Origin: an uncultured Clostridia bacterium
Lineage (GTDB): Bacteria > Bacillota > Clostridia > TANB77 > CAG-508
DNA length: 64,000 bases
NCBI GenBank assembly: GCA_934167495.1
Contig: CAKPKP010000001.1
Location: forward strand, 48,904-112,903
Direction of reading: 5' to 3'
The position numbers and the translations under genes are program-made. Numbering within the stretch: position 1 is the first letter of the stretch; every line of letters begins with the position of its first letter. Below the pieces are notes generated by a model. The model searched no databases, was not told the DNA's origin, and worked only from the letters and a program-made list of their open reading frames with translations. This document shows, piece after piece, positions 1-28,577 of this stretch.

Positions 1-584
1 AATAATAAGAAGTGCATTTCATCAGGATTTATTATTATTTCTTTAAAAGCAGTGTTTCCAGAGTCTAATGATTTTTTTCCAGCTGATTTAATTGTTTCAA
101 TGTTTTTATAGTTCATAAATTCTTGTGTATTGTTAAAGTCTATAAACAATAAATTTTTATTGTCTATATTAGATGCATCTTTTAATATATCTTGAAGATT
201 TTTATTATCTCCTAATATAGCAGAGACTTCAGCAATATTTAGAAAATTAATTATATCATTTGAATGTAATTCTTTATCTATTGGTACAACAATTCCAATA
301 ATTGATGCAGCCATATAAGATATAGACCAGTTATAACTATTTTTTCCTATTACAGCAATTTTTTTACCTAAAAAGCCCATGTTTATAAGTTCAGTACCAA
401 GAGAAATAACATCTTCAACATATTCTAAATAAGTAACTTTTTTAATACTTCCATTTGAATCTTTTAACTCAAATGCAATATTAGAAGGGTATTTACTCAT
501 TGCATTAAATAGCATATCTTTTAAATTGGTAAAGTTATCTCTTGGAAAATATTTTTTTTCTAATTCTTCAGTTATTTTAGACAT
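1..584 (-). CDS. AMP-dependent synthetase/ligase (long-chain acyl-CoA synthetase-like), 5' part; continues beyond window start
   Basis: Minus-strand ORF not in the track. RBS GGAGG then ATG at 584. The translation starts MSKITEELEKKYF and runs through YLEYVEDVISLGTELINMGF to NPDEMHFLL, which is typical of the N-terminal region of AMP-binding acyl-CoA ligases just before the TSGTTG motif. Confidence 0.55.
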   Translation of the reverse strand, partial: MSKITEELEKKYFPRDNFTNLKDMLFNAMSKYPSNIAFELKDSNGSIKKVTYLEYVEDVISLGTELINMGFLGKKIAVIGKNSYNWSISYMAASIIGIVVPIDKELHSNDIINFLNIAEVSAILGDNKNLQDILKDASNIDNKNLLFIDFNNTQEFMNYKNIETIKSAGKKSLDSGNTAFKEIIINPDEMHFLL

Positions 585-599
585 ATAAAACCTCCATAT

Positions 600-1385
600 C
601 TATATTTTTTCAAGAACGAAATTTGTATTTTGAGTTTCAGTTATACTTCCATCATAAATAGAAGAAGTATTATTTTTTAAATTTATAGGAATGATTATGT
701 TAGTTGTAAAGGTTTCGTTAAGGTTATTTACAACATTTACATTAAAACTAATATTTGCAGAGATTGAATTTAGTGGAATATTAGCTCTTTTTAACAAAGT
801 TCCATTGTATGTAATTGAGTTTTCATTATCTAATAGTAAAAAATTTGTTACTATATTATTATTTACGTAAGTTAAAGTTATAGGGTTTGAACAATCTGTG
901 TAAAAGGCAGGGGAGTCATAATTGTTTTCACCATTAGAATAAATTTGAAACTCAACATCATTATTTATAATGTTTTCTTTTGAAAATTTATCTAATCCAA
1001 AATCTGAATATTTTTTATAATAAATTGATGGTGTACCATTTTGTGGAATTTGAGTAAAATTTATATTATCAATAAAAAGTGTTTTTACAGTGTTTTCTTG
1101 TGAAAGTTCATTACTTGAAACTTTATTATTTAAATATATTGCTATATCTGTAAATTGATAAATATCTAAATCCCAGTATGCTTTTTGGTATGTGTTATTA
1201 TTTTTTATTGCTGATGCACTACTATATAAAACGATTTTATCTATTGAAAATATAGTTTTGGATTGAATGTTTTTTTCTGCATTTGATTTTTTTATTAATT
1301 TTACTGCTAAAAATATAATTGTTAATGAGATTATTAAAATTGCAGTAATTAGCAATAATTTAAAGGTTTTTGTTTTATGAAACAT
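600..1385 (-). CDS. hypothetical membrane-anchored protein (N-terminal TM, Asn/Ser/Thr-rich ectodomain)
   Basis: ORF track 600..1445. Start refined to the ATG at 1385 (MFHKTK), which is preceded by GGAGGA. One N-terminal TM helix. Likely co-transcribed with the downstream ligase gene. Confidence 0.45.
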   Translation of the reverse strand: MFHKTKTFKLLLITAILIISLTIIFLAVKLIKKSNAEKNIQSKTIFSIDKIVLYSSASAIKNNNTYQKAYWDLDIYQFTDIAIYLNNKVSSNELSQENTVKTLFIDNINFTQIPQNGTPSIYYKKYSDFGLDKFSKENIINNDVEFQIYSNGENNYDSPAFYTDCSNPITLTYVNNNIVTNFLLLDNENSITYNGTLLKRANIPLNSISANISFNVNVVNNLNETFTTNIIIPINLKNNTSSIYDGSITETQNTNFVLEKI

Positions 1386-1522
1386 AAATCCTCCATAATA
1401 AATATTATAATATATAAATATATTACAATATTTGCCTGAAAGCAATATAAAAATTAAAAAAAGTTTCGTTTAAAATTGACAAAAAATCGTATTAATATTA
1501 AAATATAATTAGGTGATTACGA

Positions 1523-2521
1523 ATGAGAACTTTTGTTGATGATATAAAAACTCAAAATGGAGTGGTATTATCTGTAGTTATGATATCAATTTGCATTATG
1601 TGTTTAATTTTTATGCTTATTTTTTCAAATACAACTTTTGCTGCAAACAATAAAAATGAAGTAAGCAATATGAATATAGAATTTAAAGAAAATAGTAATA
1701 TATTTAATATTGAAGAGATTTTAAATAGCAATAAATTAAATGTAAAAAGAGAAGAGTATTATATAGAAGAAAAAGAGATGGAATATATTACTTTATATGA
1801 AAAAACAGATACACTTCCTAAGGATGAGATTCAAATATATAAAGAAGGACAACTTGGTGTTCAAGAGAATATATATCTAAAAAAATATGAGCAAAATGAA
1901 CTTGTAAGTGAAGAACTTATAGCAAAAGGTGTAAAAAAAGCTCCTACTAGTAAAATTGTGTATGTAGGAACATATGTAGAGCCAGTAGTTGAAGAAGAAC
2001 CCGCAGAAACTCCTGTTGCTACAAGCTCAGATATAACTTTTGAAATGGATTTGAATAAACCTAGTGGATTAACATTAGAACAATTTAAGAAGGTTTTGTC
2101 AAACATTGAAAACGATACAAATAATATTTTTGAAGATAATGCAGAGTATTTTTATTATGTAGAGAAACAATATAATATAAATGGAATATTCTTAGCTGCT
2201 TTAGGAATACACGAGAGTGGATGGGGAAAATCACAAATATCATTAAATAAGAAGAATTTATTTGGATATGGTGCAAATGATAGTAATCCATATAATAATG
2301 CTTATGAATTTGACGAATATGAAGAAGGAATTGATTTAATTGCAAGAGTATTGGTAAAATACTATATTAATGAACCAGGTACTCCTATATATGAAGGAAA
2401 TGCAGTTGGTACATATTATAATGGTTCAAATTTGGAGGGAATAAATGTAAGATATTCAAGTGATGATAATTGGGGTAATGCAGTTTTCAAATGGATGGAT
2501 TATTTATACGGAAGGTTGTAG
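1523..2521 (+). CDS. peptidoglycan hydrolase with G5-like region and mannosyl-glycoprotein endo-beta-N-acetylglucosaminidase domain
   Basis: N-terminal TM/signal. KIVYVGTY resembles a G5 domain. The C-terminus GIFLAALGIHESGWGKS...NLFGYGA...YEEGIDLIARVL matches the glucosaminidase (FlgJ/autolysin) domain. Confidence 0.7.
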   Translation: MRTFVDDIKTQNGVVLSVVMISICIMCLIFMLIFSNTTFAANNKNEVSNMNIEFKENSNIFNIEEILNSNKLNVKREEYYIEEKEMEYITLYEKTDTLPKDEIQIYKEGQLGVQENIYLKKYEQNELVSEELIAKGVKKAPTSKIVYVGTYVEPVVEEEPAETPVATSSDITFEMDLNKPSGLTLEQFKKVLSNIENDTNNIFEDNAEYFYYVEKQYNINGIFLAALGIHESGWGKSQISLNKKNLFGYGANDSNPYNNAYEFDEYEEGIDLIARVLVKYYINEPGTPIYEGNAVGTYYNGSNLEGINVRYSSDDNWGNAVFKWMDYLYGRL

Positions 2522-2631
2522 ATTTTTAAATAATTTATAAATTTATGTTGATATTTTTTAAATATTATTGTATTATATTATAGTACTATAATTGGTAAAA
2601 TAATGGAAAAATGAAGGAGGCTAGAACGATA

Positions 2632-3060
2632 ATGAAAAAAGTACTAATAGCCATTTTATGTATATCAGTATTAATATTTGTACCAACAGTAGCTTTAGCT
2701 CAAAATACTAATACGAATACAAATACAGAAAATATAAAATTATCAAACACTACTCCAGAAGGGGAATTAGTTGAAATACAAGAAAAATCAAGAAGCAAAA
2801 TAGCAGAATACGAAGAATTGTATGGTTCTAAATCATATGGAGTAACAGCGTACATATTAAATGGAATAAGAATATATAGCATACCACTTTGCTTTATAGG
2901 TATAGCTGTTGGAGCAATATATCAATATGTTTTAGGTATAAGAAAATTAGATGTTAGAGACAAAGGATTAAATTTAATAGTAACTTTTGTAACAATACTT
3001 GTAATATGTCAAGTTTTACCACTTGTATTTACGGTTGTAGTTAAAAGTTGGAGGGGGTAA
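2632..3060 (+). CDS. hypothetical secreted/membrane protein (signal peptide plus C-terminal TM)
   Basis: ORF track 2611..3060. AAGGAGG RBS before the ATG at 2632 (MKKVLIAILCISVL...). Translationally coupled to the next gene (stop at 3060, next ATG at 3064). Confidence 0.45.
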   Translation: MKKVLIAILCISVLIFVPTVALAQNTNTNTNTENIKLSNTTPEGELVEIQEKSRSKIAEYEELYGSKSYGVTAYILNGIRIYSIPLCFIGIAVGAIYQYVLGIRKLDVRDKGLNLIVTFVTILVICQVLPLVFTVVVKSWRG

Positions 3061-3063
3061 CTA

Positions 3064-5712
3064 ATGAAAGTTTTGTTTGCGGTAAGTGACGAGAAAATAT
3101 CAGATGCAATCATAAAACAATATCAAAAAGAATATAGAGAGATAATATCATATAAGAATGTATATTATTTTAATGCAATATTAAAGGAGTTACAAAAGGA
3201 TAAAACTTATGACAGAATAGTTATAAGCGAGGATTTGGAACCTTTTGCAAACAATAATTATGATTCTATAGATAAATTTATTTTTGAGAAATTAGATAGT
3301 ATCAGTGATGAGGCTTTAGATAGTAATGGACAAGATACGTCTATTATTTTAATTTGTACAGATAGAAGAACTAAAGCAAGCAATATATTAGTAAAATTAT
3401 TTGGAATAGGTTTATATAATGCAATTATAGGAAAAGATAGAAGCATAGAAGAAGTATGTGCATTAATAAATAGACCAAGAACTAAAAAAGAAGCAAAAGA
3501 GTATTATAAAATTGATGTAGATGATGTTAACTATCAATCAGAAGACAGTAGTGAAGTTAATGAATTAGAATTACAAAATATTTTAGCTCATTATAAAAGA
3601 TTAGGAAAAAATACAGATAGATATACTGATAGTTTTAATAATATAGCATCACAATATAATGATGCACAATTAAGAATAATAATTAATTGTTTACCAATAG
3701 GAGTAAAAGCTGTACTAGAGGCTGAATCTCCAAAGTATCAAGAACTTATGGCTTTTTCTAATAATAATTCTAATACTGGTAAGAAAAAGGCAAAGGTTGA
3801 ACAAAGACAACCTAAGGTTAAGCAAAAAGAACCAGAGTCTATAAAAGTTGATATGCTAGAGAGCAATCAAAGAATGGATAAACCAGTAGTAATACCGGGT
3901 GTTATAAATACGTCTAAGGTAAGAAGCGTAAAGAAAACAGCTAATATAGAGCAAGATGATGAAGAAGATTTCAGACCAATAAAAAATAGCAAGTTAAATA
4001 AAAAAGTAAAATTTGCTGAAATAGATGATGACGATGAAGATGACGAGGATGAAATTCCTCAAAGAAAGGTTAGTAAACCAATTCAAAAAACAAATAAATA
4101 TGAAGAAGAGGATGACGAAGAAGAGATTGATCCTTTTGAAGATTTAGATGATATAGAAGAAATCAAAGAAGAAAAAACAGAACCAGTAAAAAAAGGAAGA
4201 GGAAGACCTAAAAAAGTTGTAGAAACTGTGCAAGAAGAGGTTAAACCTAAAGGAAAAAGAGGAAGACCTAAGAAAAATGCAGAACCAGAAGAAGAGGTTG
4301 CACTTCCTGGATTTGAAGATTATGATGATGATGAAAATGAAGAAGAAGTTTTATTACCAGGAATGGAAGATGATGATGAAGACGACGAATATATAGCTAA
4401 ACCAGCAAAAAAGGTAATTAAATCAAATAAACCTAAATATGATGAGGATGAAGAAGAAGACGATGACGAAGAAGAATCTACATTACCAGGAATGTTTGAT
4501 GACGATGATGATGACGAAGAGGATGAATATGAATTACCTAAAAAGAAACCAGTAAAACCTACTAGAAAAGCTATTGTTGAGGATGACGACGAAGAGGAAG
4601 AAGAAAGTGAAACAATGTTACCTGGAATGGGATTTGAGGATGATGAAGAAGAGAATGACGAAGAAGATGATGAAATATTTAATAAGAGACCTCAAATTAG
4701 AAATTCAAATCCTGTAAAAGCTAAAGGTATAGCAAAAAAATCTTATGATTACGAAGATGAGGAAGAATATGAAGAAGATGACGATGAACCTTCTAATCAA
4801 ATAGAATCAGTAAAACCAAGAGCTGATTATTCAATGTCAAATCTAAATAGTGTACTTACAAAAGATAAGAAAATAGTAGCTTTTGTAGGAACAACTAAGA
4901 ATGGAACATCTTTCTTGGTAAACAATTTAGCTTCATTATTCTCATCAATAGGAGTAAAAACAGCTTTACTAGATATGACAAAAAATAGAAATTCTTATTA
5001 TATATATACAAAAAATGAAGAAAACCTTAGAAAAATAGCTTTTAATTCAATTGAAAAATTGCAGAATGGTTTTGCTGAAGGAATAAAAGCAGAAAAGAAT
5101 TTAACTGTATATACATCTTTACCAAATGATAATAAAGATTATTCAAATGCAGAAGAAATTCTATCTACATTAGCACAAAATTATTCATTAATATTAATTG
5201 ATTGTGATTTTGATACAGATGCAACATACTTTGCAAATTGTCAAGAAATATATTTAGTACAATCAATGGATATATTAACAATTCAACCATTAACAGCATT
5301 TTTAAGAGAATTAAAAACAAAAGGCGTATTAGATGAAGAAAAATTAAAAGTAGTAATTAACAAAGAAATAAGAGTTAGAAGTTTAACTGCTAAAACTATA
5401 ATTGGAGGAATGTCTTTCTATAATGACCCTGCAATGTCATTTATGACAGAGTTATTTAATAAAGACAAAGTAAAATTCTGTTCAATTCCATTTGAAGATG
5501 ATGTGTATTCAAAATATCTTGAAACACTAGTAAATTGTAATATTTCAATAAGTAAATATTCAAAGAACTTCCAAAAGAAATTGAAATTATTAGGCGAAAT
5601 GGTGTATCCATCATTAAACAAAACATATACACCAAGTTCACCAGATTATAGTAGAAGTAGCTTTTCAAAAAACATGAATAACACATTAAACCAAATGAAG
5701 AATAGATATTAA
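3064..5712 (+). CDS. large protein: N-terminal receiver-like domain, ~480-aa poly-acidic linker with LPGM repeats and two GRGRPKK AT-hooks, C-terminal degenerate MinD/ParA-like ATPase fold
   Basis: GGAGGG RBS. N-terminus MKVLFAVSDEK... is CheY-like. The LPG[MF](E/F)DDDxD motif occurs 6 times, with RGRP AT-hooks. The C-terminus KKIVAFVGTTKNGTSF...LLDMTK...LILIDCDFD has a ParA/MinD topology with a non-canonical P-loop. The architecture is reminiscent of TadZ/CpaE, but no tad genes are nearby. Confidence 0.6.
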   Translation: MKVLFAVSDEKISDAIIKQYQKEYREIISYKNVYYFNAILKELQKDKTYDRIVISEDLEPFANNNYDSIDKFIFEKLDSISDEALDSNGQDTSIILICTDRRTKASNILVKLFGIGLYNAIIGKDRSIEEVCALINRPRTKKEAKEYYKIDVDDVNYQSEDSSEVNELELQNILAHYKRLGKNTDRYTDSFNNIASQYNDAQLRIIINCLPIGVKAVLEAESPKYQELMAFSNNNSNTGKKKAKVEQRQPKVKQKEPESIKVDMLESNQRMDKPVVIPGVINTSKVRSVKKTANIEQDDEEDFRPIKNSKLNKKVKFAEIDDDDEDDEDEIPQRKVSKPIQKTNKYEEEDDEEEIDPFEDLDDIEEIKEEKTEPVKKGRGRPKKVVETVQEEVKPKGKRGRPKKNAEPEEEVALPGFEDYDDDENEEEVLLPGMEDDDEDDEYIAKPAKKVIKSNKPKYDEDEEEDDDEEESTLPGMFDDDDDDEEDEYELPKKKPVKPTRKAIVEDDDEEEEESETMLPGMGFEDDEEENDEEDDEIFNKRPQIRNSNPVKAKGIAKKSYDYEDEEEYEEDDDEPSNQIESVKPRADYSMSNLNSVLTKDKKIVAFVGTTKNGTSFLVNNLASLFSSIGVKTALLDMTKNRNSYYIYTKNEENLRKIAFNSIEKLQNGFAEGIKAEKNLTVYTSLPNDNKDYSNAEEILSTLAQNYSLILIDCDFDTDATYFANCQEIYLVQSMDILTIQPLTAFLRELKTKGVLDEEKLKVVINKEIRVRSLTAKTIIGGMSFYNDPAMSFMTELFNKDKVKFCSIPFEDDVYSKYLETLVNCNISISKYSKNFQKKLKLLGEMVYPSLNKTYTPSSPDYSRSSFSKNMNNTLNQMKNRY

Positions 5713-5732
5713 AATTATGATAAAGATAAGAG

Positions 5733-6884
5733 GTGAACATTGTGGTAGCACTAATAATAGCCATTTTAGTAATATCAATCGTAGTATTAGTTGTATATAA
5801 TTTATCAATTTCAAGAAAATTGACATCTTGGAAGAATTTTAAAGATAAACTTGTAAATAATATAGAAGTAGTACAAGACTTCATTACTACGATTGGTGAT
5901 GGAGAGCCAACAGACGAAAAACTTAGAAGAATAAATGAAGTAGTAATAGAAAAATATAATATTAAATATTCTACAATAGTTGTTTTTAATGGTGCTGAAT
6001 ATGTTATTAAGGCTTCCAATGTTGACCGTAAACATTATGATGCATTAACAAATTTACATACAGAAGAGTTATTTCAAGATAGTGTTGCAAGTGCAATACC
6101 TAAGTATGTAACAATAGAAAAAGAAGGAGAAAAACTACCTTATCAAAAAACTGAGTTCGGTAGAGCTAAATCAGCAATGTTTTTCCCTTTATACATTGAT
6201 AATGTTTATATAGGATATTGGATTCTTGAAAGTGGAAAGATGCATGCTTTTGATGATTTAGATACAACTGTTATAGAAGGCATAAAAGATAATATTATTT
6301 CAACATTAAAAGCTATTTCATATCAAGATACAATAGAAAACATAGTAAGAAAAGATTTGTTCACAGGTCTTAATTCAGCCGAATATCTTTATGGACAAGC
6401 TAAAAACATTATAGATTCTCAAACTTCATCTGCTGTATGTATGTTTAGAATTACAAATATTGAGAAAATAAATGAAACAATAAGCAGAAATATGGGAAAT
6501 CAAATAATTATTGAAACAAGTAATGCTGTAAAAGAAAAAATGTATTCAAAATATATTTTTGTTAGATACATGGGACCTAAATTTGCAATTGTATTTACTG
6601 GTGTAGAAGTAAATTCTTTAGATGAGTTTTTAGAAGATTTGAAAGAAGAAATTGAATCAATAGTTCTTGAAGAAGAAATAGAAGAACCAGAAGAAAGCAA
6701 GAAAAAATCATCTAAAGCTACAACAAAGAAGAAAGTAAAGAAGAATACAAGAGTTGCAAGCCCAAAAGTAAATTTTGTTGTAACAACATATTATAAAGGA
6801 ACACCAATAGAAAATGTTACTAAAAAACTAGAAGAATATCTAGATAATGCTCCAAAGAGCGAAAATCAAATAAATTATATTTAA
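5733..6884 (+). CDS. membrane-anchored protein with degenerate GGDEF-like domain and Lys-rich tail
   Basis: N-terminal TM. DLFTGLNS...FRITNIEKIN...GPKFAIVFTG is laid out like a diguanylate cyclase, but the GGDEF motif is replaced. GTG start at 5733 or 5742. Confidence 0.45.
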   Translation: MNIVVALIIAILVISIVVLVVYNLSISRKLTSWKNFKDKLVNNIEVVQDFITTIGDGEPTDEKLRRINEVVIEKYNIKYSTIVVFNGAEYVIKASNVDRKHYDALTNLHTEELFQDSVASAIPKYVTIEKEGEKLPYQKTEFGRAKSAMFFPLYIDNVYIGYWILESGKMHAFDDLDTTVIEGIKDNIISTLKAISYQDTIENIVRKDLFTGLNSAEYLYGQAKNIIDSQTSSAVCMFRITNIEKINETISRNMGNQIIIETSNAVKEKMYSKYIFVRYMGPKFAIVFTGVEVNSLDEFLEDLKEEIESIVLEEEIEEPEESKKKSSKATTKKKVKKNTRVASPKVNFVVTTYYKGTPIENVTKKLEEYLDNAPKSENQINYI

Positions 6885-6896
6885 AAGGAGGTAATT

Positions 6897-7151
6897 ATGG
6901 CTATAGATAAAACAATGAGCTTTAAAGTAGAAAGGGACAAAAACGTAAGGGCAAAGGAAATTTTGAAAGAGGTATATCAAGCTTTAGTAGAAAAGGGATA
7001 TAATCCAATAAATCAAATAGTTGGATATATATTATCAGGAGATCCAACTTATATTACAAGCCATAATGATGCTAGAAATTTAATTAGACTTATAGAAAGA
7101 GATGAGCTTTTAGAAAAAATGGTAAAATATTACATAGGATTGGAAGAGTAA
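6897..7151 (+). CDS. ireB: UPF0297/IreB family protein
   Basis: 84 aa. Conserved position immediately upstream of ruvX. Sequence: [12 protein letters not shown]...[32 protein letters not shown]. Confidence 0.8.
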
Positions 7152-7154
7152 TAA

Positions 7155-7574
7155 ATGAGAACTTTAGGAATTGACTATGGAGATGCAAGAGTTGGAATAG
7201 CAATATCTGATGCTTTAGGAATAACAGCTCAAGGTTTGGAAACAATAAGTTATAATGGAAATGATAAAATTCTTTTAAGGCGCTTAGATGAAATAATAAC
7301 AGAATACAATGTTTCTAAAATAATTGTTGGAATGCCACTTAATATGAATGGAACAAAAACAATAAGAGCAGAAGTTACAGAAAAGTTTATTCACAAACTT
7401 AAATGCAAATACAATAAAATTGAAATTGAAACTGTTGATGAAAGATTAACAACAGTTGAAGCTCACAAAACTATGAATTTTTTAGATATAAATAAAACAA
7501 AGAAAAAAGGTTTAGTAGATACTATATCTGCTGTATATATATTAGAAACCTATTTAAACAAAACAAGTCATTAG
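7155..7574 (+). CDS. ruvX: putative pre-16S rRNA nuclease / Holliday junction resolvase-like RuvX (YqgF)
   Basis: MRTLGIDYGDARVGIAISD... is the canonical YqgF N-terminus. 139 aa. Confidence 0.9.
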   Translation: MRTLGIDYGDARVGIAISDALGITAQGLETISYNGNDKILLRRLDEIITEYNVSKIIVGMPLNMNGTKTIRAEVTEKFIHKLKCKYNKIEIETVDERLTTVEAHKTMNFLDINKTKKKGLVDTISAVYILETYLNKTSH

Positions 7575-7623
7575 TATTGTAGAAATACAATTTTATATAA
7601 ATTTTGAAAGGAGAATATTAAAA

Positions 7624-7950
7624 ATGAACGATGACGAAAATGTAATGAACTCAGGAGAAGAATTAGATAATATAATTATATTAAATGATGAGGATGGAAA
7701 TGAAGTTCAATTCGAATTCTTAGATTTAGTTGAATTAGATTCTGAAGAATATGTTATATTATTACCAGTAGCATCAGAAGACGATGAAGATGCTGATGGA
7801 GAAGTTGTTATATTAAAAGTTGAGGATTCTGAATCAGAAGAAGAAGAATCTTATGTAAGCGTTGATGATGAAGAAGTTTTAAATAAAGTATTTGAAATAT
7901 TCAAAGAAAAATTTAAAGATGAATTCAACTTCGTAGACGGAGAAGAATAA
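7624..7950 (+). CDS. DUF1292 (UPF0473) acidic protein
   Basis: Very acidic 108-aa protein in the conserved ireB-ruvX-DUF1292 context. Confidence 0.75.
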   Translation: MNDDENVMNSGEELDNIIILNDEDGNEVQFEFLDLVELDSEEYVILLPVASEDDEDADGEVVILKVEDSESEEEESYVSVDDEEVLNKVFEIFKEKFKDEFNFVDGEE

Positions 7951-7957
7951 TTTTTTA

Positions 7958-8003
7958 ATAAGGCGTTTTAAATGAAATATCATTAATTGCGCCTTATTTT
8001 TAT
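7958..8003 (+). terminator. hairpin (AATAAGGCG...CGCCTTATT) plus T-run after the DUF1292 gene
   Basis: Inverted repeat followed by TTTTAT. Also forms the left end of a copy of the intergenic repeat family. Confidence 0.45.
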
Positions 8004-8090
8004 ATAATAGGAAATTTCTCTGAATTTCCTATTATATAAATACAGTGTAAATAAAATTTTACAAAAGATTTTTAGAAAGAAGGAGTTAAA

Positions 8091-8561
8091 ATGGCTAGTT
8101 TATTCAGTTATTTACTTACAATATTTGCAGTGTTTTTTTGGATTTTTAGGGTTATTGTATCTCTTGCATATTCATTATCTTGGGACTTTGCATTTCAACC
8201 GATAAATCCACAATTAGAAATAGTAGTGCTATTTGCAACATTGCCATGTTTATTTTTAGTGGTAAAAAGAAATCTAATAGGTGCGACTGTTTATTTAGGA
8301 ATGTATGTAGCATATTTTGGAACAGAATTATTTAATATAATTACTGGAATTATAAATGGTCAAAATGGTATGGGAAGTTTCATGAATGCATTAGTAATTT
8401 TTATAGGTATATTAATTCCACTTTTATTATTTTTTGATATATTATTAAATAAAGATAGAACAGCTGGACGTAAAGATAAAAAAACAGATTGGTTTTATAC
8501 AAATAAAGATTATGATAGAGAATTTGATGAGAGAGCTGATAGAAATCAATATAGAACATAA
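8091..8561 (+). CDS. hypothetical polytopic membrane protein with charged C-terminal tail
   Basis: 4 predicted TM helices. No recognisable motif. Confidence 0.45.
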   Translation: MASLFSYLLTIFAVFFWIFRVIVSLAYSLSWDFAFQPINPQLEIVVLFATLPCLFLVVKRNLIGATVYLGMYVAYFGTELFNIITGIINGQNGMGSFMNALVIFIGILIPLLLFFDILLNKDRTAGRKDKKTDWFYTNKDYDREFDERADRNQYRT

Positions 8562-8844
8562 ATAGAAACAGATGATTATAAATGCATTGGATTTAATTTC
8601 TATTATAGAGAATTTATTGCATTGATAATTATCTGTTTTTACGTTATAATCTATGTAAAAAGGAACAGAAGTGGAAAAATATAATGATAGATAGTAAATT
8701 TAATTAAAATTAATAAAAAAATTAAAAAAAAATGAAACAAAATGGTGTTTTAATTGTATCTATATATAGAGAATATTTTTATATAATATAATTATTTGTC
8801 AAAAAATATTATATAAAAGTATTTAATAGTTTAAGGAGGAGCAA

Positions 8845-11094
8845 ATGAAAAAGGTAAAAATAGTAGCTACAATAATTACAATTTTATTATTAATGAGTTT
8901 GAATACATATGCAGTTGAAACAACAGAAAAAGACAAAGAAGTTGAACTTTCTTATTATACTCATGTTCAAGATATTGGATGGGAGGAGAAGTTTTGTCAT
9001 AAAAATGGAGAAATAGCAGGAACAACAGGAAGAGCTAAAGTTATAGAAGCTATTGTTATAAAGGCTGACAATTTACCAAAAGGTGTAACTTTAAAATATC
9101 AAGCACATGTAAGAGATATAGGTTGGCAAAGTTGGAAAAATAATGGAGAAATGGCAGGAACAACAGGAAGAGCAAAATCAATAGAAGCTATACAAATTAT
9201 GCTTCAAAATACAGAAGAATACACTATACAATATAGAGTGCATGTAAGAGATTTAGGATGGCAAGATTGGGTAAATAATGGAGAACAAGCAGGAACTACT
9301 GGTATAGCCAAACCTATAGAAGCTATACAAATAAAAATTATAAAAAGAGATGGTAAAATTCTTTATAAAGCACATGTGAGTGATATAGGTTGGATGAATT
9401 GGATGTATGATGGAGAACAAGCTGGAACTACAGGAAAAGCAAAGCCAGTTGAAGCTTTATATATTAAATCAGCAGAAAGCGAAAAATTTCAAATTGAATA
9501 TCAAGCACATGTAAGAGATATAGGCTGGATGGATTGGGTAGAAAATGGAGAACAAGCAGGAACTACAGGAAAGGCAAAGCCTATTGAAGCAATAAGAATA
9601 AAATTTAAAGAAGAGAATTCTGAATATAGCATAATGTATAGAGCACACGTAAGAGATATAGGCTGGATGGATTGGGTATATGATGGAGAACAAGCAGGAA
9701 CTACAGGAAGAGCAAAATCAGTAGAAGCAATACAAATTAAAATCGTACCAAAAACAGAAGAAAGAGTTACTTTATATGAAACTGGAACGTATGGTAAAAG
9801 CGGGTTATCATATAAAGGAGATTCTAGAGGAAGAAATTTAGAATATTATAGATTTGGAAATGGACCAAATGTGCTTTTTGCAACATTTGCAGTTCATGGA
9901 TTTGAGGATAAATGGAATAATGATGGTGGAGAACTAGTTACTATTGCTAATAATTTTTATAATCAACTAAAAAGTGGAAAATATGATGATATAGCAGAAA
10001 AGTGGACTGTATATATTTTTCCAGAAGTAAATCCAGATGGAAGGAGATATGGTTATAGTCATAATGGACCAGGAAGAACAACTTTATTTAGTAAAGCAGA
10101 AGGAAACAAAGGAATAGATATAAATAGATGTTGGGAGATTTCTGGAGTTCCATATCAAAGATTTACAGAAAGCAGAAACTACAATGGAACATCAGGATTT
10201 CAAGCTTATGAAGCAGTAGCTTTAAGAGACTTTTTATTAGCAAATCAATCTAAAACAGGACAAACTATATTAGTTGATTTACATGGTTGGACAAATCAAT
10301 TAATAGGTGATGAAGAAATATGTATGAATTATTATTATCCTAGATTTAAAAATTCAGATAGAAGTGCTGTTGGAAGATATGGTACAGGATATTTAATTAA
10401 TTGGGCTAGAAGTACATTGCGTTCAAGTGCAGGAAATGCAAAATCCGTATTAATAGAATTACCATCAAATGGTGTAGATAGTACTCAAGATGTTATAAAA
10501 TACAACTTATCTGGTAGATACATAGAATCAACAATAGAAATGTTAAAAAATATTTATGTTCCTTCAAATGAAATAAGAGTAAAAGCTCAAAGCTTAGTAG
10601 TCGAGGAACAAATAACAGAAGAAGCTCAGTTTAATACAACACTTGCAGGAATAATAAAAGAAAATAAACCAAACGATGATGAAATAGAAGAAATTGTTGC
10701 AAAAGAGAATTTAAAAAATGGTGTATGGATTAGTGAAAGATCAAGAAATGAATTTTTAAAATTAATAAATTCTTACACAAATCAAAAATATGAAATAGAT
10801 GATAATGGTTATTTAAAAATAGCAAAAAAATCAGAAAATAAAAATGATTATGATATAGCTTTAGAAAAGGCAATGAGTTCTAAAAAAGAATATGTAATTG
10901 ATATTTATGGAAGTTATTATTCTATAGATTATGTTACAAAAACAATAGAAAATAATCCTTTTGAGAAAATGGATCCTTATCAAATTTGTGAATATGTAGA
11001 AGCAGAAAATAAAAAAGCAATTATTTTAACAAGTAATTCACAAAATAAATTAGATAAAAAAGAAATAATAGATGTATTAATTGAAATGCTTTAA
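8845..11094 (+). CDS. secreted ChW-repeat protein with M14 zinc carboxypeptidase-like (gamma-D-glutamyl-diamino acid peptidase-like) domain
   Basis: Signal peptide. Seven ~48-aa repeats of the form HV(R/Q)DIGW...GE.AGTTG.AK.IEAI.IK, i.e. the clostridial hydrophobic-W type. These are followed by AVHGFED, NPDGRRYGY and DLHGW, the HxxE/NPDG/H signature of M14 peptidases. Confidence 0.7.
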   Translation: MKKVKIVATIITILLLMSLNTYAVETTEKDKEVELSYYTHVQDIGWEEKFCHKNGEIAGTTGRAKVIEAIVIKADNLPKGVTLKYQAHVRDIGWQSWKNNGEMAGTTGRAKSIEAIQIMLQNTEEYTIQYRVHVRDLGWQDWVNNGEQAGTTGIAKPIEAIQIKIIKRDGKILYKAHVSDIGWMNWMYDGEQAGTTGKAKPVEALYIKSAESEKFQIEYQAHVRDIGWMDWVENGEQAGTTGKAKPIEAIRIKFKEENSEYSIMYRAHVRDIGWMDWVYDGEQAGTTGRAKSVEAIQIKIVPKTEERVTLYETGTYGKSGLSYKGDSRGRNLEYYRFGNGPNVLFATFAVHGFEDKWNNDGGELVTIANNFYNQLKSGKYDDIAEKWTVYIFPEVNPDGRRYGYSHNGPGRTTLFSKAEGNKGIDINRCWEISGVPYQRFTESRNYNGTSGFQAYEAVALRDFLLANQSKTGQTILVDLHGWTNQLIGDEEICMNYYYPRFKNSDRSAVGRYGTGYLINWARSTLRSSAGNAKSVLIELPSNGVDSTQDVIKYNLSGRYIESTIEMLKNIYVPSNEIRVKAQSLVVEEQITEEAQFNTTLAGIIKENKPNDDEIEEIVAKENLKNGVWISERSRNEFLKLINSYTNQKYEIDDNGYLKIAKKSENKNDYDIALEKAMSSKKEYVIDIYGSYYSIDYVTKTIENNPFEKMDPYQICEYVEAENKKAIILTSNSQNKLDKKEIIDVLIEML

Positions 11095-19416: not shown

Positions 19417-21043
19417 TTGATAAACACACTACATATAAAAAATATTGGAATAATAGACGATCTAAGTATAAATTTAAATAATGGCTTTAATGTAATAACA
19501 GGAGAAACTGGAGCACGGAAAAACATTAATAATAGATTCACTTCAAATTTTAGCAGGTGGAAGATTCTCAAAAGAAATGATTAGAAATGGAGAAAAGTAT
19601 TCATATGTTGAAATGGCATTATGCTTACCAGAAGATGATGAATACGATGAAAATGTAATAGTTTCTCGAGAAATAAATACTAACGGAAAAAATCTATGTA
19701 AAATAAATGGAAGAATGGTAACTGTAGCAGAATTAAAAGAATTTATGAAAAAAGTAATAGATATACATGGTCAAAACGATAATCAATCAATATTAGATGT
19801 AAATACACACATAAAATTATTAGATGAATTTGCTGGAGAAAAAATAAAAAATATAGCCAATAAATACAACATATATTATAAAAAATATAATGATATTAAG
19901 TTAGAATTAAAAAATAACTATGGTGATGACATTGAAAAACAAAGAAAGTTAGATTTATTAAAATACCAATTAAATGAAATACAAGCAGCAAATCTAAAAG
20001 ATTCAGAAGAGGAGGAATTAGAAAATAAAAGAAAAATAATAGTTAATTCTGAGAAAATATCAGAAAATTTATCAGAGGCAGATTATTGCTTATCTGAAGG
20101 GGGAACGGATAGTATAAATAGTGCTATAAAAGCATTAGAAAAAATAGAAGATTTAGATACGAGATATAGTGATATTTTAAATTCTTTAAAAGGAGTATAT
20201 TATGAGTTTCAAGAAATATCACGAGATGTTTCAGAGTTAAAAGAAGATAATTCTTTTGATGATATAAACAAAAAAGAAATAGAAGAAAGACTAGATTTAA
20301 TATATTCATTAAAAAGAAAATATGGAAATACAATAAAAGATATACTTGATTATGAAGAGAAAATAAAAAATGAGATTTTTAATATAGAGAATTTAGAAGA
20401 GTATACAAATAAATTAAAAAATGAACTAAAAGATATAGAAAATAAAATGCAAGAATTGGCAGTTCAAATGCATGATATAAGAGAAAAAGTAAGTACAGAA
20501 TTAAGTGAAAAAATTAATTCTGAATTAAAAGATTTAGAGATGAAAAATGCATCATTTAGTATAGAAATAAAATTTAATAATGAGAAAAGATTTAATAAAA
20601 ATGGTTTAGATGAAATAGAGTTTTTAATTTCTACAAATATTGGAGAACTACCAAAGCCATTAGTAAAGATAGCTTCAGGTGGAGAAATGTCAAGAATAAT
20701 GTTGGGGATAAAAAATGTACTTGCAAATGTAGATACTGTTCCAGTAATGGTATTTGATGAAATTGATACAGGAATTAGTGGTATAGCTGCAAATATGGTG
20801 GGATTAAAAATGAAAGAAATATCTAAAAATCATCAAGTAATAGCGATAACACATTTAGCTACAATTGCTGCAAAAGGTGATTATAATTATTATATTAGTA
20901 AACAAACAATAGATGCTAGAACCAGAACAAATGTAAAAGTCTTAAACGAAGAAGAAACAATAAGAGAAATTGCAAGAATTGCAAGTGGAGATATAACAGA
21001 AATATCATTAAATCATGCAAGAGAATTAAGACGATGCGTATAA
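19417..21043 (+). pseudogene. recN: DNA repair protein RecN with +1 frameshift inside the Walker A motif
   Basis: GGGGGGA RBS plus TTG at 19417 gives LINTLHIKNIGIIDDLSINLNNGFNVITGETGA. An extra C at 19516 breaks frame, and GKTLIIDSLQILAGGRFSKEMIRNG... continues in the next frame as the track ORF 19577..21043. The rest is a typical RecN SMC-like protein. Confidence 0.75.
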
Positions 21044-21220: not shown

Positions 21221-21979
21221 ATGGAAGACGAAAAAAATGTAAATGAAGAGAAAAAACTAAATGATAACGTTGAACAAAATGTTACACCAAAAGCTGAAGA
21301 AAATGGTGAAAAAATTCAAGAAAAATCTGCAGAGCCTGAAAAAGTAGAAGAAAACAATGAAGTTAAAGCAGAAAAACAAGCAGAAGATTCAAATGAAGCA
21401 AAAGTAGAAGATACAAAAACAACTTCAGAGGAACAAAAAGCAAAATCATCTGGAATAGTAGAATGGATTAAATCAAATACTAAATTAGTAGCAATAATAG
21501 CAGCAGTAATAGCTATAATAGCAGTTCTTGGAATTGTAATATCAAATGTTACTGGAAGCCCAGAGAAAGCTATAAAAGGATATTTAAGTGCTTTATCAAA
21601 TGGAGATGCCAAAAAGCTTGAAAAAAATATGGATATAAAAGGAGTTTTAGCATATTCAGATTCTTATAGTTATTGGAGTGGAATTGATGCAGATAAATTT
21701 TTAAAAGCTTATGATAAAGTAGAAAAAGATGATATAAAAGATGCAAAAGAGAATTTAGAAGAATTAATAAACCTAATCAGAGAAGACAAAAAAGATTATA
21801 ATGTTAAATTGTTAGAAATAAAAAATCAAGAAGAAGTTAAAGGCATAGATAACATGTATAAAGTTGAAATAAAAGCTAGAATAAAATATAAAGATTCTGA
21901 TGGGGATAAACAAGATAAAACAGATACTTTCAAATTTATAATTTATAAAAATAAAGTAATATATACAACACTTTACTAA
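21221..21979 (+). CDS. hypothetical membrane protein (acidic N-terminus, central TM, C-terminal globular domain)
   Basis: ORF with RBS GGGGGAA. No recognisable motif. Confidence 0.45.
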   Translation: MEDEKNVNEEKKLNDNVEQNVTPKAEENGEKIQEKSAEPEKVEENNEVKAEKQAEDSNEAKVEDTKTTSEEQKAKSSGIVEWIKSNTKLVAIIAAVIAIIAVLGIVISNVTGSPEKAIKGYLSALSNGDAKKLEKNMDIKGVLAYSDSYSYWSGIDADKFLKAYDKVEKDDIKDAKENLEELINLIREDKKDYNVKLLEIKNQEEVKGIDNMYKVEIKARIKYKDSDGDKQDKTDTFKFIIYKNKVIYTTLY

Positions 21980-24910: not shown

Positions 24911-25681
24911 ATGGAATTTGCTGATATTATTCTTGAAGAGAAAGATTTAGTAAAGAAAATAGAAATAATTTCATTTTTAAAGAAGAAGGAAAAGATTTTT
25001 TTCGATACATCTGTTATTCTAAAAGCTGAAATTACAAAACAATTTATGGATATAATGAATATTGATGTAGACAAAAACGAAGTTATTACAGCATGCTTAG
25101 TTTATGGATTTAAAAGAATTAATTCACCTCAAGAAATTCAAAGAATAAAAAAAGAAGGAAAGCTAGATTATGAATATTTAAAATCTCTTGGATTTAATGA
25201 TAAGTTTTGTAAAATTTGTAGTGAATATAATAGGTATAATGAGAAAGAAGGATATGTAAGAGAAAAAGAAGGGGACATACTAGAACTGGTAGATAATTTT
25301 GGAGGTCTTATAATGCACAGACCAGAAAGGCTGGCTTTTCCAATTGAAGATGCTATACAAGTTTTAGAATATAAAAATTTACATCATAAAAATAATAGGT
25401 ATTTAGAAGAGTTTAAAAAGTTTATAAATATTATGGAAGCAATTGAAACTAAAAGAATGGTAGGTTCATATACTAAATTGCAAAATTGCTTTAATATGTT
25501 AAAAAGAGAAGATATTGCAGGTGCTGTAAGAGCAATATATGACCATGAAGATAGAATTGCTATTGCAATAGGATTAGATGTTGATGGAAATTCTCAAACA
25601 AGATTAGAAAATGTAGGAAAATTTTCCGCAAGACTTATGGAATTAAATAAAATTGAAAATGAAGAAAAGAAAGGAAAATAA
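24911..25681 (+). CDS. hypothetical protein, tightly coupled upstream of the endonuclease Q homologue
   Basis: 256 aa. No recognisable motif. The stop is 4 nt before the EndoQ start. Confidence 0.45.
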   Translation: MEFADIILEEKDLVKKIEIISFLKKKEKIFFDTSVILKAEITKQFMDIMNIDVDKNEVITACLVYGFKRINSPQEIQRIKKEGKLDYEYLKSLGFNDKFCKICSEYNRYNEKEGYVREKEGDILELVDNFGGLIMHRPERLAFPIEDAIQVLEYKNLHHKNNRYLEEFKKFINIMEAIETKRMVGSYTKLQNCFNMLKREDIAGAVRAIYDHEDRIAIAIGLDVDGNSQTRLENVGKFSARLMELNKIENEEKKGK

Positions 25682-27587: not shown

Positions 27588-27695
27588 AAGTATTTACAAT
27601 TTAAGAATGTTTTGATATAACATATATAGTTTATGTAAATTAATTAGGAGTGCATTTCCATAAAAATGCAAAATCAATGTATAGGGGAGCCAAAA

Positions 27696-28577
27696 ATGGA
27701 AAAACAAATTAATCTTTTTTTAGAATTTCTTGCGAATGACAAAAAATTATCTGCAAATACTTTGCAGTCATATAAAAGAGACATAGTACAATATCAAGAA
27801 TATGTAGAAGAAAATAAAATTAATTATTTAAAAGCAACAAATGAAAATATAAAGGATTACTTTGAATATTTAAAAAAATTAAATAAGAAAACTTCAACAA
27901 TTTCAAGAAGTTTAGCCTCTATTAGATCTTTTTACCAATATTTAATAAGAGTGAAAAAAATAAAAAAAGATCCAACAAATGGCATGCAATCACCAAAGAT
28001 TGAAAAAAAAGCACCAAGCATATTATCTTCAAAAGAAGTAGAATTATTATTAGAGCAACCTAAGAATGTAGACTTAAAAGGAATTAGAGATAAAGCAATG
28101 TTAGAGTTCGCATATGCTACAGGAATGAGAGTTACAGAAATTATATCATTAGATATAGATGATGTTAACATTGAAGAAAAATATGTTACTTGTAGTAATG
28201 GATTCAAAAAAAGAAATATACCACTTGGTACATTATCTTTAAAAGCATTACAAGAATACATAGAAAATGCAAGACCAATATTAATAAAAGATGAAGAAAC
28301 AAAAGCTTTATTCGTAAATATAAATGGAAAAAGACTTACAAGACAAGGATTTTGGAAGATAGTTAAATATTATAAAGAACAAGCTCATATAACAAAAGAC
28401 ATAACACCACATGTTTTAAGACATTCATTTGCAACACATTTGTTACAAAATGGAGCAGATTTAAAAGCAATTCAAACAATGCTAGGACATTCAGACATAT
28501 CATCAACACAAGTTTATATGCAATTTCAAAATGAAAGTTTAAAAAAGGTTTATAATAAAGCTCATCCAAGAGCATAG
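27696..28577 (+). CDS. xerD: tyrosine recombinase XerD
   Basis: MEKQINLFLEFLANDKKLSANTLQSYKRDI is the N-terminal core-binding domain. The C-terminus HVLRHSFATHLLQNGADLKAIQTMLGHSDISSTQVY is the catalytic R-H-R-Y region. Confidence 0.85.
   Translation: MEKQINLFLEFLANDKKLSANTLQSYKRDIVQYQEYVEENKINYLKATNENIKDYFEYLKKLNKKTSTISRSLASIRSFYQYLIRVKKIKKDPTNGMQSPKIEKKAPSILSSKEVELLLEQPKNVDLKGIRDKAMLEFAYATGMRVTEIISLDIDDVNIEEKYVTCSNGFKKRNIPLGTLSLKALQEYIENARPILIKDEETKALFVNINGKRLTRQGFWKIVKYYKEQAHITKDITPHVLRHSFATHLLQNGADLKAIQTMLGHSDISSTQVYMQFQNESLKKVYNKAHPRA

Follow-up and report, generated by a model that had tools for sequence, protein, structure and literature searches.

The locus described here lies in a stretch of 64,000 nucleotides (hereafter, the window) from an uncultured Clostridia bacterium (GenBank assembly GCA_934167495.1, contig CAKPKP010000001.1, positions 48,904 to 112,903). 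Three tightly packed + strand genes occupy positions 2632-6884 of the window. The first (2632..3060) encodes a small membrane protein of 142 residues; the second (3064..5712), which is at the centre of the finding and was recognised from its open reading frame (ORF) and its relatives, encodes a multidomain protein of 882 residues; the third (5742..6884) encodes a membrane-anchored protein of 380 residues, with an N-terminal transmembrane segment, a middle domain, and a degenerate GGDEF domain. Directly downstream, in every clade, come three more + strand genes (6897..7950), namely ireB (6897-7151), ruvX (7155-7574), and a DUF1292 gene (7624-7950). An earlier note on this DNA, made from the sequence alone, had singled out the first three genes as an unusual module in which the central protein combines a receiver-like domain, an acidic linker with AT-hooks, and a MinD-like domain. 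ParA/MinD proteins are the main tools that bacteria have for placing things inside the cell.

The start codon of the small gene is the ATG at 2632, which follows the ribosome-binding site (RBS) GAAGGAGG, rather than the ATG at 2611, which falls within that RBS; the gene ends with the TAA at 3058-3060. The RBS of the big gene, GGAGGGGG, is embedded in the final codons of the small gene, with 3 nt between the stop of the latter and the ATG of the former, so that the translational coupling proposed in the earlier note is indeed plausible. The GGDEF-like gene starts at the GTG at 5742, six bases past GAGGTG, a start on which gene callers agree in four metagenomic copies, and it stops at 6884, twelve bases ahead of the ATG of ireB (6897). 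Because of this close packing, and because no terminator-like site was found on the + strand between 2521 and 8600, the three genes are probably co-transcribed with ireB, ruvX, and the DUF1292 gene. A scan for sigma-70-like promoters over positions 1-9000 gave 61 matches versus the 69 expected from shuffled sequence, that is, fewer than chance, and a consensus promoter scan was rejected as evidence, being uninformative at such a base composition (the content of G and C is 19-33% in the window and 25% in the genome). The best + strand promoter candidates are at 1476-1504, ahead of a glucosaminidase gene, and at 2548-2576, ahead of the small gene. The module had been thought to take the usual place of alaS upstream of ireB-ruvX; alaS was not found in the window, and the upstream genes vary among clades.

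The big protein belongs to a large family that has no name and is confined to low-GC, uncultured Clostridia. More than 6,284 related 90% clusters exist, all unnamed or "hypothetical", and in a scan that took one genome from each GTDB species, relatives turned up in at least 477 species, every hit being a metagenome-assembled genome of an uncultured Clostridia bacterium (e.g., Candidatus Merdicola or Scatovivens). When 1.84 billion representative proteins were searched with a profile of the C-terminal domain, only 384 clusters matched at E ≤ 0.001, so the family is self-contained, and by sequence it does not extend to ordinary ParA/MinD proteins.

The order of the genes (small protein, big protein, GGDEF-like protein, ireB, ruvX, DUF1292) is identical in 80 of 80 species loci. 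In 77 of them, the big gene is directly preceded by an orthologue of the small protein, the contigs of the other three beginning at the big gene itself, and such an orthologue is also present in distant clades wherever the contig extends that far. A G5-glucosaminidase gene lies upstream of the module in 54 of the 80. Two other conserved neighbours, both without a significant Pfam match, encode membrane proteins of 156 residues (8091-8561, + strand; 60 of the 80 loci) and 281 residues (600-1445, − strand; 47 of the 80), and these may belong to the same functional neighbourhood. Further downstream, the window carries at 8845-11094 (+ strand) a gene for a secreted protein of 749 residues, with about seven ChW repeats and then a Peptidase_M14 carboxypeptidase domain, which, unlike the genes upstream of it, is not kept beside the module in other species.

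In distant clades, the pair of small and big genes still abuts ireB-ruvX-DUF1292, often with a gene for a PBP5-type carboxypeptidase (Peptidase_S11) upstream. The GGDEF-like gene is found at 81 loci of the window's clade and at the intermediate loci L088 and L090; it is absent from the distant loci L085-L087, L089, and L091, which represent three clades and in which the pair sits directly on ireB. The three-gene module is therefore not the conserved unit that the earlier note took it to be. Since the pair persists in distant clades without the GGDEF-like gene, the AT-hooks, or the LPG motifs (see below), the ancestral unit is, to judge from gene order, the two genes in front of ireB, and the AT-hooks, the LPG array, and the GGDEF-like gene are, on the same comparison, later additions in the window's clade. 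At L088:4818-6000, two genes without Pfam matches (142 and 239 residues), and not one, lie ahead of the big gene.

Sequence libraries are nearly silent about the 882-residue protein: in Pfam, only AT_hook scores above its cut-off, with CbiA below threshold; no NCBIfam family reaches its threshold; and the best phmmer match in the PDB is BceF, with E = 1.3. The structures of both conserved ends were therefore predicted with AlphaFold2 (AF2) from alignments of 79 family members. The N-terminal model has a predicted local distance difference test score (pLDDT) of 74 overall and of 85-91 across most of residues 1-230, and its first 136 residues (3064..3471, + strand) adopt the five-stranded fold of a CheY-type receiver. 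When Foldseek was run with this model, CpaE2, CpaE, and a Burkholderia pilus-assembly protein appeared at ranks 1, 9, and 45, all of which are atypical receivers of the TadZ/CpaE family. The receiver-like N-domain of the earlier note is thus borne out by the fold. There is no match to Pfam Response_reg, and Glu56 occupies the position of the phospho-acceptor, the acidic pair after β1 is not kept across clades (E10 is lost in the distant ones), and no conserved lysine follows β5, while T99 (or Ser) is retained. Because of these substitutions, the N-domain is, according to the model, a pseudo-receiver that cannot be phosphorylated. Comparisons with hhalign of the N-domain alignment with CheY and of the C-domain alignment with E. 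coli MinD gave no significant alignment, so the mapping of motifs in both domains relies on secondary-structure positions in the AF2 models.

Behind the pseudo-receiver comes a linker helix with the motif PRxKKEAK and then, over residues 167-234, a bundle of five helices (together, residues ~140-234; 3481..3765, + strand; pLDDT ~85), which are kept in all clades. From residue 235 to residue 584 (3766..4815, + strand), the protein is predicted to be disordered on the basis of its composition and of a pLDDT of 30-39 over the part modelled, residues 235-290. This linker, the length of which varies strongly between species, is 35% Asp plus Glu overall and 43% over residues 318-575, with a net charge of −71; the earlier note was right about its acidity, but the region has about 350 residues rather than about 480, and its acidic content falls short of the 50% that had been given.

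Two AT-hooks lie in the linker, KKGRGRPKK at residues 376-384 (4189..4215, + strand) and KGKRGRPKK at residues 396-404 (4249..4275, + strand). They were found by Pfam (AT_hook, 18.0 bits; cut-off 17.4), by a motif scan, and by comparison with shuffled linkers, in which two RGRP cores were reached in 0 of 20,000 shuffles. Exactly two such cores occur in 76 of 81 species copies, and their position is conserved too, which upholds the claim of two AT-hooks. The core of the first, GRGRPKK (family consensus GRGRPRK), is very similar to a hook core of HMGA1. Next comes an array of acidic short motifs (4294..4653, + strand), with the family consensus [ED][ED]x[IV]LPG[FL][ED][DE] (from a logo of 381 sites in 81 species) and a median of 4-5 copies per protein. 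The window copy has four exact LPG copies, at residues 414, 431, 474, and 519, and two more that are degenerate, where six repeats had been claimed; shuffling gives an expectation of 0.02 copies, and four were reached in 0 of 20,000 shuffles. Both the AT-hooks and the LPG motifs are absent from the more distant clades (30-45% identity), and the AT-hooks are also absent from some close relatives. In a basal clade (P0411 at L091:10001-11839, P0405, and P0407), the linker is instead a repeat rich in Glu, Lys, and Val (EKIVEVEKPVEIEK...), with no acidic LPG array. With two canonical, conserved hooks in a genome of 25% GC, tethering to the nucleoid may be a reasonable proposal, one that would hold at most for the window's clade; given the absence of hooks and LPG motifs from distant clades, tethering of DNA by way of the hooks is not the ancestral core function of the family.

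The protein might be chiefly a DNA-binding one, either a nucleoid-associated protein or a transcription factor of a CarD- or NarL-like kind, in which the AT-hooks would act together with a possible helix-turn-helix-like bundle behind the pseudo-receiver. In the CarD protein of Myxococcus, RGRP hooks do lie beside an acidic unfolded segment (PMC4374960), as the HMGA-type hooks do here, and Foldseek aligns about 240 columns of the N-terminal model with full-length regulators of the NarL/LuxR type. However, CarD has four hooks and an N-domain that binds RNA polymerase, whereas this protein has two, set in a scaffold that includes a ParA fold. Moreover, the template modelling scores of the NarL/LuxR alignments are low (0.31-0.36), Pfam finds no helix-turn-helix family, the hooks are missing from deeper clades as well as from some of the close relatives, and neither the ParA-fold domain, nor the membrane partners, nor the MinD-like tails described below would be explained. 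We give this explanation only a slim chance.

The C-terminal domain (residues 585-860; 4816..5643, + strand) has a ParA/MinD fold preceded by a conserved extension, DYSMSxLNSxL, in an AF2 model with a pLDDT of 66 and a predicted template modelling score of 0.72. At the position of the P-loop, between β1 and α1, lies GTTKNGTS (residues 609-616; 4888..4911, + strand), and the earlier description of a ParA/MinD fold with a degenerate P-loop is therefore confirmed by the predicted structure. Across all clades, the family motif is G-x-x-K-x-G-[TV]-[TS], in which both lysines of the deviant Walker A motif, KGGxxGK[ST], are gone. A different lysine, K612, two residues ahead of the last glycine, is nearly invariant, being replaced in a few divergent representatives. 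The Walker-B-like strand LILIDCD (residues 709-715; 5188..5208, + strand) has D713 and D715 conserved family-wide, and an LDxT after β2 is retained. A further near-invariant segment, FYNDPAMSFMTELFNKD (residues 785-801; 5416..5466, + strand), has a pLDDT below 50 and was not placed by AF2; it is probably an interface that becomes ordered only in a complex.

By sequence, the closest approach to a known family is to CbiA in Pfam, with a cut-off of 25.4 bits, for which the window copy scores 14.4-17.9, P0411 26.9, P0405 25.2, and P0407 23.4, all over the same Walker-B region; the basal clade of P0411 is the only one in which the C-domain reaches the threshold. A profile of the full-length family found in the PDB only low-complexity matches to the acidic linker and was set aside for domain-only profiles, which gave no match at E up to 10 against all PDB sequences, including those of 3fkq, 4n0p, and 4myr. 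By its fold and by the sequence bridge that P0411 provides, the family truly belongs to the ParA/MinD superfamily, without the defining Walker A motif. It matches no characterised sporulation or flagellar component, which the earlier note had named, along with some other fold for the C-domain, as what would count against its proposal.

The end of the protein differs among clades. The window copy finishes with FSKNMNNTLNQMKNRY (5662..5709, + strand), which is amphipathic as a helix (the hydrophobic moment is 1.34, compared with 0.63 in shuffles, and is reached by 1.4% of these), and 116 of its 120 close relatives have a tail of the type FSxNMNNTLNxMKKKY. In the distant P0242 set, 114 of 116 proteins end in [KR][KR]x..[LIF]F[GK], for example, ...KKRGLFG or ...KRFFG. 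The end by which E. coli MinD is targeted to the membrane is ...KRLFGG, which the ends of the P0242 set resemble, so that these ends might bind the membrane too. The type of tail co-varies with the partner gene: the FSxNMNNTLNxM tail and the GGDEF-like gene go together in the window's clade (116 of 120 relatives; 81 loci), while the three loci of the P0242 set that were read (L085-L087) have the basic-hydrophobic tail without the GGDEF-like gene.

One explanation for such a domain would be a working ATPase of the ParA/MinD type: K612 would take over from the Walker lysine, dimers formed in an ATP-dependent manner would cycle on the membrane or the nucleoid, and hydrolysis would be stimulated by a partner. 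The protein would then belong to a Min- or Par-like patterning system, specific to the lineage, that places the division site or the chromosome. The fold, the near-invariant P-loop lysine, the Walker-B aspartate, the aspartate after β2, and the MinD-like tails of several clades are all consistent with this, and TadZ is reported to keep a low ATPase activity without the lysines (PMC10482377). What makes a working ATPase very unlikely in our view is that the signature lysine, the P-loop lysine, and the GG of KGGxxGK[ST] are all missing, that the operon contains no gene resembling minE, minC, or parB, and that profile searches fail to reach canonical ParA/MinD proteins. MinD (and FlhG/FleN) resembles the C-domain in its fold; the differences are that a deviant Walker A and the partners MinC and MinE are lacking here, and that the tail of the window copy is longer and of another type.

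The closest known architecture is that of TadZ/CpaE (ErTadZ, 3fkq; CpaE, 4n0p; CpaE2, 4myr), in which an atypical receiver that cannot be phosphorylated is followed by a ParA/MinD fold without the P-loop lysine. For the N-domain, these proteins give the best match in structure, and for the C-domain they rank with the best, TadZ itself being one of the top matches. ErTadZ has lost both lysines yet binds ATP, dimerises, and serves as a hub (PMC10482377, citing Xu 2012), and the atypical receiver of TadZ has been proposed to be a localisation module (bioRxiv 10.64898/2026.07.08.737194). The analogy to TadZ/CpaE made in the earlier note is thus right as regards architecture. There are, however, several differences. 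The Walker-A-like consensus of TadZ (as given in bioRxiv 10.64898/2026.07.08.737194) is K/RGGxGxS/T, whereas here it is GxxKxGT[ST], of which only the final GxS/T fits; some 450 extra residues, comprising the helical bundle and the disordered linker, separate the two domains; and instead of a tad locus, there is a hairpin membrane protein and ireB-ruvX. Since the TadZ motif is missing, no tad locus lies in the window or within 10 kb at the loci whose neighbours were read, and no sequence similarity to the solved TadZ/CpaE chains is detectable, the 882-residue protein is not a TadZ.

This bears on the possibility that the protein is a true assembly factor of the TadZ/CpaE type, serving a pilus or a type IV secretion-like machine whose genes lie elsewhere, and that the small protein is a VirB2-type pilin. 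The small protein has a signal peptide (residues 1-24), a short outside segment, a first transmembrane segment (residues 82-102), a loop (residues 103-112), and a second transmembrane segment (residues 113-137), and in this predicted topology, its sole cytoplasmic part is the conserved basic loop of ten residues, IRKLDVRDKG, at 103-112. Two distant orthologues score 25.8 and 20.8 bits with the Pfam family T4SS_pilin (PF18895), the cut-off of which is 26.6; the window protein and 29 other copies have no match to this family, and genes for type IV secretion systems (T4SS) are not adjacent. The near-threshold scores are taken as a hint about the fold and not as evidence of a secretion system. The structural neighbours of both domains and the orthologue at 25.8 bits would fit an assembly factor, but the TadZ motif is not present, the small protein of the window has no pilin match, and no genes for TadA/B/C, Flp, VirB4, or VirB6 lie within 10 kb at the loci whose neighbours were read. 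Moreover, the 80 species loci keep their envelope and ireB neighbours, and the locus is a syntenic, housekeeping one in a family found in at least 477 species. We consider an assembly factor of this kind highly improbable, and the absence of pilus genes reported in the earlier note extends to these other loci.

In the window itself, the only pilus or T4SS gene is a lone TraG-like one some 30 kb away. This gene, for a TraG/VirD4-type coupling protein (36487-38850, − strand), is one of three spread over 25 kb, the others being those for a tyrosine recombinase (27666-28577, + strand) and a large serine recombinase (49899-51500, + strand); all three may be remnants of integrated conjugative elements, and no further T4SS gene was seen among the window ORFs scanned. 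An origin of the module in a mobile or conjugative element, suggested by the borderline pilin match and the TraG-like gene at 36.5 kb, was rejected, since gene order at the locus is kept in 80 of 80 species loci and its neighbours are housekeeping genes. A defence-system or phage origin was likewise rejected, with no match from PADLOC and with only generic GGDEF-type and signal-peptide matches from PHROGs. Elsewhere in the window, three + strand ORFs (19577-21043, 21221-21979, and 24911-25681; 488, 252, and 256 residues) match no Pfam family at E ≤ 1e-5.

The third protein matches GGDEF in Pfam with 34.1 bits (cut-off 23.8), and its middle domain looks GAF-like. In place of RxGG[DE]EF, its sequence reads RYMGPKF (6564..6584, + strand), which is conserved in at least 95% of 81 species copies, and no RxxD I-site lies upstream, the position being occupied by YSKY. 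That the GGDEF domain is degenerate, as noted earlier, is therefore correct, but the lysine-rich "tail" attributed to this protein is an insertion within the domain, at residues 323-340, with 43 residues after it. From these motifs, the protein is judged not to be a diguanylate cyclase; it should be unable to make cyclic di-GMP and should lack the usual site for binding it.

A comparison can be made with the cellulose system of E. coli, where BcsE uses its degenerate GGDEF domain to bind BcsQ, a protein of the ParA/MinD type, and where the complex is taken to the membrane by BcsF, a small membrane protein (PMC7439463). The same parts (a ParA/MinD protein, a degenerate receiver plus GGDEF, and a small membrane protein) are there split over several proteins; the differences lie in the arrangement, the absence of a cellulose synthase here, the lack of an I-site in the GGDEF-like protein, and the lack of any sequence relationship. 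By analogy, the module could be a regulator of envelope synthesis, with the GGDEF/GAF-like protein sensing a nucleotide or a small ligand and the big protein relaying this to the synthesis or turnover of peptidoglycan, in connection with IreB. The function of IreB (ReoM-type) is known from work in Enterococcus and Listeria. Apart from this correspondence with the Bcs vestibule (PMC7439463), a regulator of this type would suit the neighbouring genes, namely ireB on the downstream side and, upstream, one for either a G5-glucosaminidase or a Peptidase_S11 PBP5. Nevertheless, three clades keep the small and big genes without the GGDEF-like gene, the latter has neither an RxxD I-site nor a GG[DE]EF motif, the operon contains no synthase gene, and the connection to IreB is one of adjacency only, so that we regard such a regulator as decidedly unlikely.

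Another possibility is based on the lifestyle of the host, which must be an endospore-former since the window contains genes for SpoIIIAF and SpoIIIAH (55301-57108, + strand, with a Pfam-less ORF in between). The protein could then be a sporulation-specific organiser, for example, a polar anchor of the chromosome, analogous to RacA, or a scaffold for morphogenesis that includes an acidic region. Anchoring of the axial filament would be a fitting task for a protein able to bind DNA as well as the membrane; moreover, spo0A lies a few kilobases downstream in distant clades (~5 kb from the module in loci L085-L087), and a PBP5 of the dacB/dacF type lies upstream. Against this, there is no evidence of a sporulation-specific promoter or regulator, the operon holds the housekeeping genes ireB and ruvX, and neither Pfam nor NCBIfam shows similarity to known Spo proteins. 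The chance that this is the main role seems to us very slight.

The explanation that we tentatively prefer, and that may well prove wrong, is that the 882-residue protein is a positional scaffold close to the membrane, with low or no turnover of nucleotide, that also contacts AT-rich DNA. From the folds, the degenerate sites, the motifs, the operon, and the phyletic pattern, we infer the following interactions and cellular role. The C-domain would dimerise like TadZ, with or without a bound nucleotide, and would be held on the cytoplasmic side of the membrane. Where the GGDEF-like protein is missing, the C-terminal tail, which is basic and hydrophobic like that of MinD, would do the holding; in the window's clade, this would fall to the amphipathic tail, to the GGDEF-like protein, or to both, much as BcsE (through its degenerate GGDEF domain) and BcsF hold BcsQ. 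The basic loop of the hairpin protein might also help to hold the C-domain there. The pseudo-receiver and the helical bundle would form a module for localisation or for binding a partner, as proposed for the atypical receiver of TadZ. In the window's clade, the two HMGA-type AT-hooks would bind the AT-rich chromosome in its minor groove, and the 4-5 acidic [IV]LPG[FL][ED][DE] motifs would recruit a putative client in a multivalent manner, as in HubP/FimV. Overall, a site on the membrane would thereby be coupled to both the nucleoid and a client machine.

In the HubP/FimV hubs, a large cytoplasmic region that is acidic and contains repeats lies at the membrane, and these hubs organise ParA-like ATPases (PMC8789113, PMC12918733). 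The 882-residue protein would share such a region, if it is indeed placed at the membrane; the differences are that HubP and FimV are transmembrane proteins themselves, with LysM and FimV/TPR domains, whereas here the ParA-like domain is inside the acidic protein. With a G5-glucosaminidase or a PBP5-type carboxypeptidase encoded upstream and ireB lying downstream, the client would most plausibly work in the growth of the cell envelope, in division, or in the placement of the chromosome, to judge from gene adjacency alone.

Several points weigh against the scaffold. The near-invariant K612, together with the Walker-B aspartate and the LDxT, could mean that the nucleotide site works and has a real turnover. 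The AF2 model of the C-domain is only moderate (pLDDT 66). The attachment to the membrane would follow from the tails and the neighbours only. The co-variation of tail and GGDEF-like gene may reflect just one or two evolutionary events, and the synteny with ireB-ruvX may be an inherited gene order rather than a functional coupling.

A bolder version of the scaffold would make the family a lineage-wide, cell-organising system not recognised before, in which a pseudo-ATPase with the ParA/MinD fold has passed DNA binding on to AT-hooks of the eukaryotic type and recruitment of the client to the array of acidic LPGF motifs, so as to form a static bridge between the membrane, the nucleoid, and the client. 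Such a system, which we think unlikely, would take over part of the roles of the Min, Noc, or RacA type and would be genetically wired to the operon of the ireB cell-wall checkpoint.

The folds of the components were already known, as was the TadZ-type design of a pseudo-receiver followed by a ParA/MinD domain. What is new is a large, coherent family, still without a name, in which this design is used away from pilus loci and which has a fixed place ahead of ireB-ruvX and a distinctive variant of the P-loop. In the window's clade, what is also new is that HMGA-type AT-hooks (which are canonical here, though rare in bacteria), an array of short motifs, and a degenerate GGDEF membrane partner have been grafted onto it. 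TadZ provides the precedent of a ParA/MinD version without the lysines that is able to act as a hub. If the 882-residue protein is a scaffold, it would be a natural example of an ATP-driven positioning module that has been turned into a static adaptor, and it would be a candidate organiser of division, the chromosome, or the envelope in abundant, uncultured gut Clostridia, with a possible tie to the ireB-ruvX operon; otherwise, the family would still be a large, clean, and unannotated one that merits a database entry.

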